This document shows, one piece after another, positions 12,641-44,635 of a DNA stretch of 64,000 bases. The notes beneath the pieces were generated by a model. The model searched no databases, had not been told where the DNA came from, and worked only from the letters and a program-made list of their open reading frames with translations. Position 1 is the stretch's first letter. Each line of letters begins with the position of its first letter. Location of the stretch: assembly GCA_051294375.1 (NCBI GenBank), contig CM119266.1, forward strand, positions 10,069,677-10,133,676. The letters run 5' to 3'. Origin of the DNA: Paraspadella gotoi. Its lineage: Eukaryota; Animalia; Chaetognatha. The translations under genes were made by a program, and so were the position numbers.

Positions 12641-13279
12641 GAGAAACAAAGCTGGACAGCTGCTGGAAGGCCGCTGTACAGTCACTGCAGAGCAGGAACT
12701 CGTTGCAGAAAAAGAAAAAAAATATATATATATATATATAATTTAAAGAAATAAAAGAAAGGCAAAAATATGTTACAATTGTTTACAATTGGAAATTTTT
12801 CCAATTTTTTCCAATCGCAGCTTGTAAAAGATTTTATTTTTATTTGTATTAAAATTAAGATATAGCTTCTCATTAAAAAGTTCCTTTGAGTTCCCATTTT
12901 TATTATAGATTTGATATCTTCAATATTATATACTGCAATATGTAAATTAGATTAAAGCATTTCTATATACTAATTTTGATACTATAATGAGTACTATAAT
13001 CTTATTTTCATATTGCAGTAAATCAAAATGAAGTGGAAATTCAAACAAAAAATACTTAAATCCAAATGTAATAAGAAAATATCAGAGCTATTTCAAGATG
13101 AGAAGCCATATCTAAATTTTTAACTTACTATGATCACACACTTTTATAAAACTTCATCGTAATTAATAATAATTTTTATTTAAAAAAAAACTATAAAAGC
13201 GTAGTAGTTTTTATACAAAAAAGCGTGACGCCGACGACCACGACGACGACGACGTCACAAAGAAGCTGACCCGAATCAA

Positions 13280-13318: not shown

Positions 13319-13759
13319 AAAATCCGAAATTTAAAAAAACGGTAAACAAGATTCCGAAATCTTTTTGTTTACTCGATTTTTTAAGAGATTTAAACTCAGC
13401 GAAATTGCTCACGACTCCGATAAAATCCTGTCAGAGCAGCTGAGATAATTGTTGAGTCAACAAACAGGTTTTTTGAAAAAAAAGAAAATTGGAATCTTCG
13501 ACTTTTTATCTTAATGATATTTCAAGGGGCGTTTTTTACAGAATCCTTGCATTGTTTAACTTGAAAAAAACTTTTTTTAAAAGAAAAACCGGCATTTACT
13601 AAAAATACTAAAATTTTAAGGACTGCAATGACAATTTTTTTTTTCTGTAATCTTTCCTCGACGCAGTAATTATCTTAGTAATTTACTAATAAGTGTCATT
13701 GTCATTGACCGAATTTGACATAACCCGAAGATGCCGCGAGAACAGTTCTACACTGATGG

Positions 13760-14252
13760 TCGAAAACAGAACATTTTCGTTGGATGATTGCGGTTGAAGC
13801 AATTGACCGTCATGGTTATGGAATTGATCAAATTCACTCTGGCCGCTAAACAAAAAAAAACCTCTACGACGACATTGCAATGTTGGAGGAATGGTCTTAC
13901 CGCAATTATGAAAAGTTTTTAAAGTTGAAGAATTTAATGAGGGTTGAAAAAAACATTTTGCACAAAGGGAGACAAATTCCGAATCTTGAGAAAGCCGATA
14001 TTTTCTTTTTGAGCTTTGTTTCAAGATTCATATTGAGCCAAAAAAAACAACAACTTGTCGCCAAAATTCAGCGGAAGAGTAACAATGAAAACCATTCTAC
14101 CAAAATCGAAATCGGTGCTAAGGAACTCGAAGTAAATTTGTCAGACATCCACAAAATCGTTTCAAAGTTATTTGACGATCCGAAACAAAAAGAAAAATGG
14201 TGGAGTTATTTTCAAAGACTCAAAGAGGAGCCTTTGGACGAAACGGAAGGAG
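13760..14252 (+). CDS. Exon encoding HEPN-like (DZIP3-type) domain, copy 1, of the kinase-RNase locus
   Basis: Reads EHFRWMIAVEAIDRHG / MELIKFTLAAKQKK / NLYDDIAMLEEWSYRNYEK...GRQIPNLEKADIFFLSFV...KIQRKSNNENHST...LSDIHKIVSKLF, with two frameshifts near 13815 and 13855. It aligns with the exon at 15698. GTAAG donor at 14253. The HEPN call comes from the DIxFL motif plus the (R/S)NxxxH motif at 14078-14095. Confidence 0.6.
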
Positions 14253-14299
14253 GTAAGAAATTCTCTAATACTTTAATTAATTTATATATACTAAAGTGA

Positions 14300-15490
14300 C
14301 CTAGAGTACCGTTCTGACGGAATGGATACACTTGATAAAGGATAGCCCTTTGTTGTTAGTAATCCGGATCCGGCGACAGGCTTGCAACTGGCGATTCAAC
14401 CGGCCCGTCACTCTTTGGCAATGGACAGAATTGTTCGAAAATGAAGCGTTAGCCCAATGCCATATTTTATCACTTATCCAACGGGTAGTAGATATTGTGT
14501 TACCCCAACAATTGCGCGTCAAAATTATAACTACCCTAGGCTCAAGTTTAATATCCTGAGCCAAATCCAATGATACAAAATAAACCACTGGCATACTTCA
14601 CTGTATTGAGACAGACTCAATTAGATTTTTTTAATTGATAGATAAATTTTAAACATTTTTTATGCATAAATTTCATTTTAATTTATAATCATTAAAAACT
14701 TTAAATTTATTTTCCAACAAAGGTGGTTTAATCGCCATGTTGTCGGCAAATCGCACTATAAACCTTTTTTGGTGCATAGGAGGGTGACACTCCAGCTTTT
14801 ATTGAAATAATTCTAGCAAGCTGACAACCATGACCAAGAATCCTTGTCTGTGCCAAAAAGATTATTGGCAAGATGACGAGTTGTTCCAACTGCCTATCAT
14901 TAGCCTGTCCTCCCTGGAAAAACAGAAAAAGCAGGAGTTGGCTTTTGTAAAACTATTGTCAATTTTAAAGAATAGGTAGTTAACGCAAGAAAAAGTGACT
15001 AGTGAGACATAGCATCTCCTGATTAAAAGTTTTTTAATGTAATTTTTACAGAAAAAACAGCTCCAGAAGTGGGTATAATCCTTAGCCATCCTGAGGTTCC
15101 AATCTGTAACATATTAATATTTTATTATGGTAATTCCAATTCAAATAAAAGCAGAAACCAAAGTTTTTATCAATATTTGATTTTTGTAATGACGAATAAA
15201 CAGAGCTGCTTTTGGACAAGGTTTTTTGCTCCATGAAGAATAATTTTTTCTAGCGATGCATAATTTTTTTTACCTTTTTGGAAACCATTTTGAGAAAGTT
15301 TTAATTATTGAATTTAATTATTTATTTCTAGGCTGACTTAATAAGAATTTGTAATTCAATCTCGTCTGCCCGTTAAAGTAAAGTTTCTACGGGTTTTTTG
15401 ATATTATTGATACTAATAAAATAATAATTATCCAAAGACTCTTGTCGTACTCTTTAAACGGGCGACGTCTAGAACGCGCGACACCTTGAG
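14300..15490 (+). CDS. Fragmentary short exons with WD40-like motifs
   Basis: SGDRLATGDSTG/PVTLWQW (14363-14424, frameshifted), GGLIAMLSANRTINLFW (14722-14772) and LSYSLNGRRL (15442-15471), separated by short AT-rich GT..AG intron-like tracts. The exon structure cannot be resolved. Confidence 0.4.
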
Positions 15491-15697
15491 GCATGAAAAT
15501 AACATATATTTTCTGCAAATATTTTTAAGCAATGTTTTGGACTTTTTAAAAACGTCAATGATTTTTATATCAAATAGTATCATAAATTTTATTTATTGGC
15601 ATATAGTGTAATGTGTAATTAATTGTTATTTTGCATCATTTAATTTGGCTCACGGGGTATTATATTTTTTGACCATACAAATTTTGTTTCCTTGAAG

Positions 15698-16363
15698 GAT
15701 TTTTTACTCTGAACCAATACCGTTGGTTTCGCATTAATGTTGCGATTCAAGATGGTGGAAGAAAAATGCTTCAGCAACTGGTACAGATAGATCTACAGAA
15801 AAAATATAAATTGAGCTTTGATAACAAACTATGGGAGAGGTGGTGTATTGACAACTATGATGAATTAAAAAAATGTCGGTTTTATTTGTCTCAAACAAAG
15901 GTCTCTATAAATGGAAAAGCTGTACCACGTTTAGAATTTATAGATGTCTCTTTTTTACACGGTGTTATTCTCTTAATAAACCCCAAACGAAAGGAGGTCA
16001 TGTGGCGCTTGACAGACTTAAGAATCAAAACCGTTAATCTTGAGTATGATCTCGACGAATCTAAATTCAATTCACTTTTCGACGATTTATTTAAAATCTG
16101 CANNNNNNNNNNNNNNNNNNNNNNNNNNNNNNNNNNNNNNNNNNNNNNNNNNNNNNNNNNNNNNNNNNNNNNNNNNNNNNNNNNNNNNNNNNNNNNNNNN
16201 NNNNNNNNNNNNNNNNNNNNNNNNNNNNNNNNNNNNNNNNNNNNNNNNNNNNNNNNNNNNNNNNNNNNNNNNNNNNNNNNNNNNNNNNNNNNNNNNNNNN
16301 NNNNNNNNNNNNNNNTGGAGTACATTAAGATTCAACAGATTGACGGAGATCAACTGAACCCAA
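15698..16363 (+). CDS. Exon encoding HEPN-like (DZIP3-type) domain, copy 2 (interrupted by an assembly gap)
   Basis: Acceptor TTTCCTTGAAG ends at 15697. Open frame FFTLNQYRWFRINVAIQDGGRKMLQQLVQ...WERWCIDNY...GKAVPRLEFIDVSFLHGV...WRLTDLRIKTVNLEYDLDESKFNSLFDDLFKIC, then N-gap 16103-16315, then YIKIQQIDGDQLNP and a phase-1 GTAAGT donor at 16364. Confidence 0.7.
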
Positions 16364-16401
16364 GTAAGTTAAAAAAATGTTTGGAATTTGATGATAAATA
16401 A

Positions 16402-16512
16402 GCCATAGCGTTTCAGGCTAACTTACTCTACAAATTGAGCTTTTTTAGTATTTTCTGAACTTACCATGCTTCATTGCTTGTGTAATTGTATTAGCCTGAA
16501 ACCGCAAATGGC
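16402..16512. mobile_element. ~110-bp palindromic MITE-like insert inside intron 16364-16656
   Basis: GCCATAGCGTTTCAGGCTAA ... TTAGCCTGAAACCGCAAATGGC form ~20-bp imperfect terminal inverted repeats, with weaker inner complementarity. Confidence 0.6.
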
Positions 16513-16656
16513 AGAAGTTAACTTACTGAGGGTATGTAGCTCATAAAACAAGTACATGTGCAACGCATCCTGGCATTCCTGGGCCACAAATTAATACATA
16601 TTTAATATTTTTATTGCTTTTTGCCTTCAATGACATTACACTTACTTTCTTATCAG

Positions 16657-18600
16657 GTTCCCTTACAACATCTACAGGACAACGCTTTACTATTGATTTC
16701 AAAACACTTCTTTAGATAAAACACACCTAACAATCCCGTAGTTTTTGAGGGCAAAATGCTGACAAAGTGACAGTAGCTATAAAGTCAATACAACTGACTG
16801 ATACAAGGAAACATTTACAATTCAGCGAACAGTGTGAGAATAATTCGTAAGTTTGACAGACATCAAAATCTGATTTCATTTCTTTGGTGATGCAAAGGAC
16901 GAATGCCAGGGCAGACCGACAGTTGGATATCTTTTAATGGAGAAATGCGAAGCTACTTTGAGAGACGGTCGTCAATGGTTTTGAGCTACCCGGACAACTG
17001 ATTTAAAAAGAAAGGCAGTAACTGGAACTGGCAAAAATCTTTTGACTGGTTTAGCAGTACTTGCACACGGGTATAAGACCTATTGTTCACAGAGATATTA
17101 AACCGGATAACTGTTTTATAAAGATAGACGCAAGAAATAATACAATCACAGGAAAACTCGGTGACTTTGGGGTCAGTAAAGAAATGAGTAGTTGTCAATA
17201 TGAAACAACTGCCATCCATGGACATGAATATTATAGATCTCCAGAGCTTTTGCAGTTTCATTTGGAGTCAAAGTAAAATTAACACCAGAAGAACATCATT
17301 TTTCGGATGTTTTTGCACTGGGTGGTACTCTGGGAGAGTTGTTTACAGGAAAACATCCATTTTTAGGAACAAGCGAGTATACCTTTAATATTCAGAATAA
17401 TATTAGTGATGGAAAATTTAATTTTCTACCTTTTTTGAATATCCCGTATGAAGCTAAAATAGGAATGTGCAATCTCATACTGGCCATGACCTATTTTACA
17501 GCGACTAAAAGACCCACCGCAAGTAAATGCATGGAGCATCTGATATTTCAGAATCCTACACACAAAATACAGAAAGAGCGAATAGAGATCAATCAGTTAC
17601 TGAATGATAAAAAGGACCAAGAAGAAAAGCAAATATCATTCAACAGTATAATGAAAACTCAGAATTGATCTTGGGATGTAACGGAAACTGGCTGAAAAGT
17701 TTCTCACCACAATTTCATCCTTACTTGACTGGAGAGCGAGGTAAACTAAGCAAATATGATATCGCCCAAGCTTCTGAGCTTCGGCGTTGTTTGAGAAACA
17801 TCTTCACACATGCGGTTAGTCACTCTGACATTGAGGAAGTAGTGGGAATAACTCAACCGAGACAAGAGACATCCATAGGTACTTTAACAAAATATACCCT
17901 TGGTTGGATTGCCACGACTTGTGGTTCATCAAGTTTCTATGTGACAAACTTGATATTTTTGGGGAGAAAAATTTTTCAATACGAGTTAGAGAACAGATGC
18001 ATCAAGGAATTTGAAGAAAAAAAGGCCATTCTTCCTTTGCAAAAAAATAATGAAATTTTTATTGAGGGAACCGAAAAAATTGTAATTAAGCAAGAAAAAG
18101 TGTTCGCTTTAATTTCTGTCGGGACCATCAAAAAACTACTTCGTTCAAAGAAAAAAAGCAACTTTCTGATTTCCAACTCCTTGGGAGACACGTTATCTGA
18201 CGAAGACTGCGTTCTCGATGGATCGACGCTGCGGGCAGAAAAAATCAGGGAGCTTAAGATCTCTCTCGTAAGCAGAGAAAGATTCCAGATGCAAGAGATG
18301 GAACTTGAAGCCAACGGTGATTTGATGATCGCCGAGCTCGTCGCTGAAGCCGTAGAACAATTGCCACGTGACTTCAAGAAAAAGATCAAATTCATGAGGT
18401 TGCGAAGTTCGAACGATAAGTTGCTGGATCCTAAGAAGACCCTGGAGGAGCAAGCCGTCTTCAGCGGATGCAAGTTGGTAGCCGAGTTCATTGACGATAT
18501 CGACTCGTTCTGGTTACCGATTGGAGGAGAAGATGAAGAGGAGAACAAATCAGAGGGAAGCGATGAAGATGTGATCGAATGGGGCGGTTTGTTTGAGTAG
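16657..18600 (+). CDS. IRE1/RNase L-family Ser/Thr kinase + KEN ribonuclease + C-terminal ubiquitin-like domain(s); long terminal exon with several apparent frameshifts
   Basis: The acceptor TTTCTTATCAG ends at 16656 and joins in phase (SSLTTSTGQRFTIDFKTLL). Kinase motifs: VFEGK, VAIK (16773-16784), IIRKFDRHQNLISFFG, YLLMEKCEATL, HRDIKPDN (17088-17111), DFG (17163-17171), YRSPE, SDVFALG, TGKHPF, KRPTASKCMEHLIF. KEN: NWLKSF...SKYDIAQASELRRCLRNIFTH (17794-17811) and, in a shifted frame, RYFNKIYPWL (17877-17906). UBL-like: 18050-18240 and 18244-18489, then an acidic tail and TAG at 18598-18600. Confidence 0.88.
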
Positions 18601-18778
18601 TTGTTGACGCTGCATTGAAAAAATTTGTGTGTGACTATATCTGTATCTAATCATTAAATTTTTTGAAATTTAAATAGGTATGTCTTTATTGTTTATATCT
18701 ATTATGTAGTATTCAAAAAGATTCAATCTTAAAGTTAAACTTTTTGAGCGGAAAACTAAAAAAATAAGATCGGTTCAG

Positions 18779-44562: not shown

Positions 44563-44635
44563 GCCGAAATAGCTCAGTTGGGAGAGCGTTAGACTGAAGA
44601 TCTAAAGGTCCCTGGATCAATCCCGGGTTTCGGCA
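44563..44635 (+). tRNA. tRNA-Phe-GAA: tRNA-Phe, anticodon GAA, intronless
   Basis: GCCGAAATAGCTCAGTTGGGAGAGCGTTAGACTGAAGATCTAAAGGTCCCTGGATCAATCCCGGGTTTCGGCA, 73 nt. Acceptor stem GCCGAAA/TTTCGGC, anticodon stem TTAGA/TCTAA, T stem CCTGG/CCGGG. Confidence 0.96.

Follow-up and report, generated by a model that had tools for sequence, protein, structure and literature searches.

A three-exon gene joins two HEPN-like exons to a kinase exon

The DNA analyzed here, hereafter the window, is a stretch of 64,000 nucleotides from the chaetognath Paraspadella gotoi (assembly GCA_051294375.1, contig CM119266.1, positions 10,069,677 to 10,133,676 of the forward strand). The stretch is represented in nine public sequencing runs from one organism and three studies, and contigs of these runs were mapped onto the window. 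At its left side we found a real and spliced three-exon gene, whose predicted product carries two HEPN-like repeats, a protein kinase domain, a KEN RNase domain and a likely ubiquitin-like (UBL) unit (Table 1). None of the runs is annotated as RNA; one of them, X5, was guessed to be RNA by software, and two splice joints back this guess. A single X5 contig of 2032 nt runs through 13500-14250, 15696-16102, 16316-16363 and 16657-17436 in unbroken consecutive order, and since this one spliced contig holds all three exons, both HEPN-like exons are joined to the kinase. The linkage of the first HEPN-like exon to the kinase, left in doubt by the original prediction (made from the sequence alone), is thereby established, and the splice donor at 16364 and acceptor at 16656 that it had placed are exact (joint 16363->16657, GT..AG ends). 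Instead of a kinase exon spliced to a luminal domain and transmembrane (TM) helix, or lying apart from the upstream exons, X5 shows it joined to HEPN-like exons. The joint at intron 2 occurs in X5 only; the DNA run X1 reads through unspliced, and X5 depth is 0 over 16392-16607, within the intron. At intron 1, the loose end of X5 before 15696 is identical to the closing 30 nt of exon 1. DNA contigs of X1 likewise join exon 2, intron 2 and the kinase. A processed retrocopy was considered as the origin of the spliced contig and rejected, the 16363->16657 joint being absent from X1 DNA.

The reading frame of the window needed correction in several places. The run of N letters in the second exon had been located correctly (16103-16315), but not at its true length: contigs of X5 and X1 carry 54 letters between 16102 and 16316, not 213, and the frame is therefore kept. 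Exon 1 is frameshifted in the window by 8 extra letters, all of which probably fall within its coding part. Further downstream, coding indels at 17269, 17564, 17588, 17699 and 17934 are common to 4 of 4 runs from 3 studies (among the 12 of 65 indels listed), and eight kinase indels are found in both X5 and X1 (among the 12 of 19 listed). Because the same indels recur in contigs of three studies, which lack the frameshifts of the window, the latter are assembly errors, and the earlier suspicion of sequencing errors was borne out. With the listed indels and two inferred insertions, the kinase is open over 16659-17665. Net lengths of the contig pieces fit the needed frame in 5 of 6 pieces as first set, and the sixth fits if the first unlisted insertion sits upstream of 16758. 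By piece lengths, the coding total is 2955 nt or 985 codons, for a protein of about 985 residues. X1 and X7 contigs span 16666-17787 without a joint, X5 pieces cover 17371-18005, 18073-18311 and 18282-18449, and the contigs over 18073-18449 are free of gaps. The X7 piece over 18420-18760 holds 8 gap letters, mostly unplaced, and the frame of the tail rests on the open reading frame (ORF) of the window.

A WD40-like part had been proposed between the two HEPN-like exons. This proposal did not hold: the X5 contig jumps from 14250 to 15696, so that the WD40-like region is intron, and 7 pieces from the spliced-out segment gave no Pfam WD40 match. DNA contigs over 14272-14586 equal the window in all three DNA runs (0 differences, 0 gaps), and the stops there are therefore real. 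Two X5 contigs within the intron, 14382-14586 and 14779-15057, have a depth of 2.7-2.8 vs 11.4; they may come from DNA carry-over, a minor exon or RNA that had not been spliced. The first of the two was considered as an alternative coding exon and rejected, as its WD40-like frame holds a confirmed stop. Intron 1 also holds multi-copy repeats, with a depth at least 10 times that of the gene, which are likely mobile-element insertions. Joints 14429-15672 in X1 and X3 (short side of 29-31 letters) are seen as well; about 1.2 kb of this intron seems to be missing from a second version of the locus.

Table 1. Features of the gene, with positions in the window and the evidence for each.
Feature	Positions	Strand	Evidence
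5' untranslated part of exon 1	13500-13730	+	X5 contig 13500-14250 without joint; in-frame stop just before ATG
Exon 1, coding: HEPN-like repeat 1	13731-14252	+	motif S-N-x3-H; 64.9 bits against relatives' profile
Intron 1, GT-AG, phase 1	14253-15697	+	X5 contig passes directly from 14250 to 15696
Exon 2: HEPN-like repeat 2, includes N gap	15698-16363	+	motif R-I-x3-N; 82.7 bits against relatives' profile
Intron 2, GT-AG, phase 1	16364-16656	+	X5 joint 16363->16657
Protein kinase domain (exon 3 from 16657)	16657-17555	+	Pfam; frame open on contig-corrected reading
KEN RNase domain	17556-17960	+	Ribonuc_2-5A below cut-off; R-N-I-F-T-H at 17794-17811
Possible first ubiquitin-like unit, doubtful	18050-18245	+	marginal likeness to second unit; no profile match
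Likely ubiquitin-like unit	18250-18490	+	Ubiquitin_5 and YukD, both below cut-off
Acidic tail and stop codon	18491-18600	+	ORF 17611-18600

Taken as a whole, the window consists of eukaryotic DNA rich in repeats, interrupted by 23 runs of N. Another 74 ORFs were scanned and gave no Pfam match at 1e-3, and the only other recognizable gene is a tRNA-Phe(GAA) at 44563-44635 (ARAGORN, Rfam). Some 700 nt ahead of the start codon, at 12918-13033, lies an imperfect inverted repeat (72% over 117 nt) that is possibly a small mobile element.

Domains of the predicted protein

Two repeats form the head of the protein. Their local alignment score of 105, at about 27% identity, was reached by none of 2000 shuffles, and exons 1 and 2 are therefore copies of one domain. 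A profile of the two repeats was searched against 1.84 billion proteins with E up to 1e-3 and gave 11 matches, one of which (P0001, a bacterial repeat protein) was dropped. The remaining 10 relatives are unnamed and lie on contigs of 584-1521 nt. RN-x3-H is present in all 6 relatives that extend to the motif helix; the other 4 are fragments that end or diverge before it. Weak matches to HEPN-family Pfam models were found in 6 of the 10, four of them to HEPN_DZIP3 (PF18738, gathering score 27 bits) with E 0.0017-0.09. P0012, a HEPN-NACHT protein of 954 residues and cluster mate of P0003, contains NACHT above the Pfam cut-off, and the C-terminal end of P0009 is a P-loop. P0005, P0008 and P0010 seem to be short stand-alone or fragmentary forms. 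A profile made from the relatives only fits both repeats over their full length (Table 1), with shuffles scoring 7.6 bits or less. The two HEPN-like domains proposed ahead of the kinase are thus kin, by profile search, to proteins with RN-x3-H.

In alignment, the N-termini of the relatives start at the same place as repeat 1, and the start codon at 13731 lies slightly upstream of the range first noted (13760..18600). The same alignment points to a partial loss of the motif in each repeat: in repeat 1 the Arg is lost with Asn and His kept, and in repeat 2 the Arg is kept with Asn and His lost. An Arg two places earlier in repeat 1 gives a loose R-x6-H, and this repeat may have residual catalytic activity; both repeats are nevertheless likely to be non-catalytic HEPN domains. 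Judging from profiles and motifs, the head pairs two members of a divergent HEPN family that is associated with NLRs, each copy without part of the catalytic motif, and the family appears as a divergent sister group of HEPN_DZIP3 that falls outside it by the Pfam cut-off. Structure models added little. The model of repeat 2 is helical, with a predicted local distance difference test (pLDDT) score of 44.6, and that of the UBL region, made from a single sequence, reaches 34.1; both are too poor for use. Fold searches with the two models gave only generic bundles, including Csm6 (Z 4.8, root-mean-square deviation 3.7, 72 aligned), and no HEPN match was prominent among them.

Pfam models were run on 20 in-frame pieces of 13731-18600 on the + strand, among which the coding pieces switch frames. 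Pkinase matched 17055-17273 above cut-off (E 9e-13) and also 17237-17665 (E 7e-5). The landmarks of a kinase were located, namely VAIK Lys (16782), HRD (17088), DFG (17163), SPE (17238) and the subdomain IX Asp (17306), and the catalytic Lys, the HRD Asp, the Asn of HRD-x-K-x-x-N and the DFG Asp are all kept. By the criteria for kinase activity given in PMC1420674, this kinase is predicted to be "active, qualified", the qualification being its missing Gly-rich loop. An IRE1/RNase L-type kinase had been claimed at this place; the kinase itself stands. NEK7, CDPK and others score above IRE1 in a PDB sequence search with the kinase pieces. IRE1 is a weak match for the C-lobe piece (E 0.8, behind CDPKs) and absent for the catalytic piece among the 60 of 107 matches listed. 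The label "IRE1-type" stems from motif likeness and the adjacent KEN domain, not from a tree. A metagenome scan with the kinase C-lobe returned 2 loci of 36-39% identity over short stretches, which were taken as unrelated kinases, and PADLOC and NCBIfam scans gave weak or generic kinase matches only.

Directly after the kinase, where a KEN domain had been predicted, Ribonuc_2-5A matched the in-frame piece 17611-17991 with E 7.8e-4 and 20.0 bits (cut-off 23.3 bits) over profile positions 20-82 of 127, in support of that prediction. Apart from the intact RNIFTH, the 4 pieces that were scanned have no strict R-[NDH]-x3-5-H. KEN activity requires the Arg, the next polar residue and the His (PMC3710099), and this KEN domain is likely RNA-cutting, as far as its motif can tell. 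The proposed tail of one or two UBL units found some support for the second unit, which is likely ubiquitin-like and matched two beta-grasp profiles below cut-off in piece 18232-18501 (Ubiquitin_5, E 1e-3 to 2.6e-3; YukD, E 3e-3 to 4e-3), and not for the first, which had no Pfam profile match and whose similarity to the second was reached by 42 of 2000 shuffles. In the acidic tail (18490-18597), two W-x-x-L/I motifs follow acidic residues, and the second Trp is altered in the other version of the locus. These motifs resemble Atg8-interacting motifs, probably by chance. Searches of PDB sequences with profiles of KEN, UBL and the head yielded chance matches only, and ESM Atlas gave no usable match for repeat 2 or KEN-UBL.

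The absence of a signal peptide, TM helix and ankyrin repeats, noted at the outset, is confirmed: the highest 19-residue hydropathy is 1.55, the N-terminus is polar and no ankyrin match was found by Pfam among the 20 in-frame pieces. A stretch of about 25 residues at 16970-17035 has, by eye, too little hydrophobicity for a TM helix.

Versions of the locus and a paralogous kinase

Contigs of X1 fall into two versions at the 5' side of the gene. In repeat 2 they show 0 or 40 differences in 283 nt without gaps (depth 69 and 112), and in intron 2 they show 0 or 34 differences with 6 gap letters in 302 nt (depth 60 and 95). Both 5' versions adjoin one kinase contig of depth 153. At 88% likeness, the depth over exon 1 is down to one third or one half in X1 and X3, suggesting that the second version is perhaps still more diverged there. 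Among the 32 of 40 changes listed for repeat 2, 27 codons are altered, with 22 replacements, 5 silent changes and 0 stops; thus 22 of 70 codons in the repeat are replaced between versions, and the ratio of replacement to silent rates (dN/dS), from these 32 changes, is about 1.1. Over kinase-KEN, contigs of X1 and X7 differ in 11 of 1118 nt, or about 1%, vs 14% in repeat 2. Divergence between versions of the locus is therefore concentrated in the head relative to kinase-KEN. The two versions may be alleles or paralogues.

A paralogous kinase was also found, on an X5 contig of 3021 nt (depth 15.7) that matches 17082-17126 and is present in X1 too. About 550 nt of this contig precede the catalytic loop and 2400 nt follow it, and the flanks, compared by hand, keep the frame and share 7 of 10 and 4 of 10 residues with the kinase described here; at least one paralogous kinase therefore exists. 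Another X5 contig matches briefly within repeat 2, at about 15980-16031, and is unlike it beyond that point, by chance or as a distant paralogue. No contig matching at 80% was found in two runs from other organisms (X10, X11), which is not proof of absence.

Possible function and relation to known systems

As monomers, IRE1 and RNase L are inactive; they are switched on as oligomers, have their sensor at the N-terminus, depend on nucleotide in the kinase domain and use KEN to cut RNA (PMC4061530). HEPN nucleases work only with two motifs juxtaposed (bioRxiv 10.1101/760058), and motif-less HEPN domains have been proposed as RNA receptors (PMC3710099). Since our protein follows the order of IRE1 and RNase L with a new N-terminal module, we infer that the dead HEPN pair may be the receptor. 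By analogy, the gene would encode a cytosolic defence RNase activated by dimerization through a variable dead-HEPN sensor, a reading that we hold to be about evenly poised between right and wrong. The two likely dead HEPN domains of the head would sense a variable foreign ligand, either RNA or a pathogen protein, and ligand-bound heads would bring one chain to another. For its part, the kinase is expected to bind nucleotide and set the dimer; cleavage of single-stranded RNA would presumably fall to the paired KEN domains, and the UBL tail might, at a guess, serve docking or turnover.

Several points weigh against this proposal. At the level of the transcript, the RNA status of X5 is itself a software guess, the span from kinase to UBL never lies within one RNA contig, and X5 pieces overlapping at 17371-17436 carry 5 differences; 18006-18072 lies outside every listed piece, although a bin depth of 8.2 suggests that it is covered after all. 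As for the domains, the HEPN matches of the relatives all stay below cut-off (best 18.6 bits), neither repeat matches any Pfam HEPN model, and scores of the repeats against the relatives' profile are not independent, the relatives having been chosen by the two-repeat profile. A scan of 12 relatives showed neither kinase nor KEN in any, which leaves a single organism from which the architecture is known. The KEN match is below the Pfam cut-off, and so are both matches in the tail. The Gly-rich loop of the kinase is without any Gly, and His stands where PKA has Thr201. With regard to variability, the kinase C-lobe of X3 differs by 3.6%, and kinase variation is perhaps understated overall because contigs merge close alleles. 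Divergence of repeat 2 is not above that of intron 2 (p 0.32), its dN/dS rests on 6 silent changes and fits lost constraint equally well as diversifying selection, and the excess of replacement over silent changes (22:5 vs 4:5 in the kinase) is not significant (p 0.08).

Four other explanations were weighed. The dead HEPN pair could be a docking module for activated HEPN-NACHT receptors, in the way that NOD2 recruits RIPK2 through CARD-CARD contact, or a lock on its own KEN domain. The repeats do come from a family that heads NACHT proteins, HEPN domains act as dimers (bioRxiv 10.1101/760058) and KEN itself has the HEPN fold (PMC3710099); however, a surface that binds a host partner is expected to be conserved, yet 22 of 70 codons in repeat 2 are replaced between versions. 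Nor was a HEPN-NACHT gene seen in this organism, whose whole genome lay outside the search, and we consider this explanation unlikely. A soluble IRE-family paralogue that serves ordinary stress responses or RNA-decay control, without any part in pathogen defence, is rather improbable. Soluble Dictyostelium IRE kinases lack Ser/Thr 201, like this kinase (PMC1420674), and a run without any known challenge yielded an RNA contig of the gene, but its head belongs to an NLR-associated family and is far more variable than the kinase.

The head could instead be neutrally decaying, in a young exon-shuffled duplicate that captured and doubled a HEPN exon and in which kinase-KEN is kept or homogenized among copies. 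A dN/dS near 1, intron-like divergence, radical changes such as Trp to Arg in repeat 2, the degenerate state of both motifs and database searches without a relative of the same architecture all agree with such decay. On the other hand, there are no stops in the 27 changed codons and no gaps in 283 nt of repeat 2 vs 6 gap letters in 302 nt of intron 2, the low identity between the repeats indicates an old duplication, both still match their family along their length and the transcript is spliced in frame, which leaves decay quite improbable. Finally, an ordinary IRE1, a pseudogene or a mis-assembly might be suspected from the many frameshifts and stops of the window. This is already largely refuted and very improbable: contigs of three studies are free of the indels, HEPN exons and no luminal or TM exon precede the kinase on the spliced contig, no TM helix is present and X1 DNA contigs tie exon 2, intron 2 and kinase together.

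Returning to the ligand-gated defence RNase, a more far-reaching version can be put forward tentatively, as doubtful but possible. Sponges and other invertebrates have OAS, and a survey of 12 of them found no RNase L (PMC6307210), which raises the question of what cuts RNA in their antiviral response. The protein could be an independently evolved analogue of RNase L in a lineage without RNase L, with the doubled NLR-type HEPN as a hypervariable sensor or decoy whose binding of pathogen RNA or an anti-HEPN protein would fire KEN. In the boldest form, the half-motifs of the head (Asn and His of repeat 1, Arg of repeat 2) may complement each other in one chain, as in Cas13, for a two-headed RNase with three HEPN-superfamily domains. 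If active and ligand-gated, the protein would mean that an RNase L-like enzyme arose a second time, and it would offer a role, open to test, for HEPN domains that have lost catalysis. The gene has an IRE1/RNase L effector re-wired to a head of the HEPN-NACHT family and places two immune toolkits in one chain, and the search exposed a HEPN subfamily, its RN-x3-H intact, that escapes Pfam at its cut-off.

No HEPN-kinase-KEN fusion was found in the titles and abstract openings of the literature matched, most subscription papers lying outside this scope, and protein searches by word index, covering longer proteins only, gave no relative with this architecture, which is weak evidence. As judged from its domains, the protein is not IRE1 (luminal domain and TM absent) and not RNase L (ankyrin absent, kinase motifs kept). 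With IRE1/Ire1p it shares a kinase with Lys, HRD and DFG followed directly by KEN with R-N-x3-H, as well as the N-terminal position of the sensor. Unlike IRE1, it has no signal peptide, luminal domain or TM helix, and it has a twin HEPN head, a UBL tail and a much diverged kinase with no Gly-rich loop. Its working mode is probably most like that of RNase L, which is built of ankyrin repeats, a pseudokinase and KEN in 741 aa (PMC4061530): both are soluble, with an N-terminal regulatory module, a kinase fold, KEN and, here by prediction, a dimerization switch. In contrast to RNase L, our protein has no ankyrin and hence no known 2-5A site, keeps the catalytic kinase motifs and carries a UBL tail.

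Swt1 and Cas13 likewise have two HEPN domains per polypeptide. Swt1 combines an inactive HEPN dyad with a PIN RNase, the dead HEPN being proposed to sense RNA for the nuclease (PMC3710099), and Cas13 has tandem HEPN in one chain (bioRxiv 10.1101/760058). They differ from our protein in HEPN family and nuclease and in the kinase that lies between head and nuclease here; the motifs of Cas13 are complete, whereas those of the head are incomplete. Closer to the head are DZIP3/hRUL138-like HEPN proteins and HEPN-NACHT receptors, which share the RN-x3-H family, weak HEPN_DZIP3 matches and fusion to NACHT. The DZIP3-type family is mainly animal (PMC3710099, Table 1), and the HEPN-NACHT layout is expanded among anthozoan NLRs (PMC8260672).

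For the effector half, the IRE family of Dictyostelium numbers seven members, each with an RNase domain; six are not membrane-bound, and these soluble kinases share with ours a membrane-free kinase-KEN, the lack of Ser/Thr at position 201 and lineage-specific paralogues (PMC1420674). A KEN-ubiquitin fusion, listed in Table 1 of PMC3710099, likewise joins a ubiquitin-like domain to KEN. In the accessible parts of these two sources a HEPN head is not mentioned, in contrast to the protein described here. The claim that the effector is wired to a different sensor region thus stands for the soluble twin-HEPN head ahead of kinase-KEN and falls for the WD40 element, which is intron. Likewise, the architecture called unrecognized is new, among the literature matched, in its HEPN head, while solubility and the KEN-ubiquitin fusion were known. 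With membrane-free kinase-KEN proteins already described, the novelty would therefore lie in the twin, putatively dead HEPN head and not in solubility.

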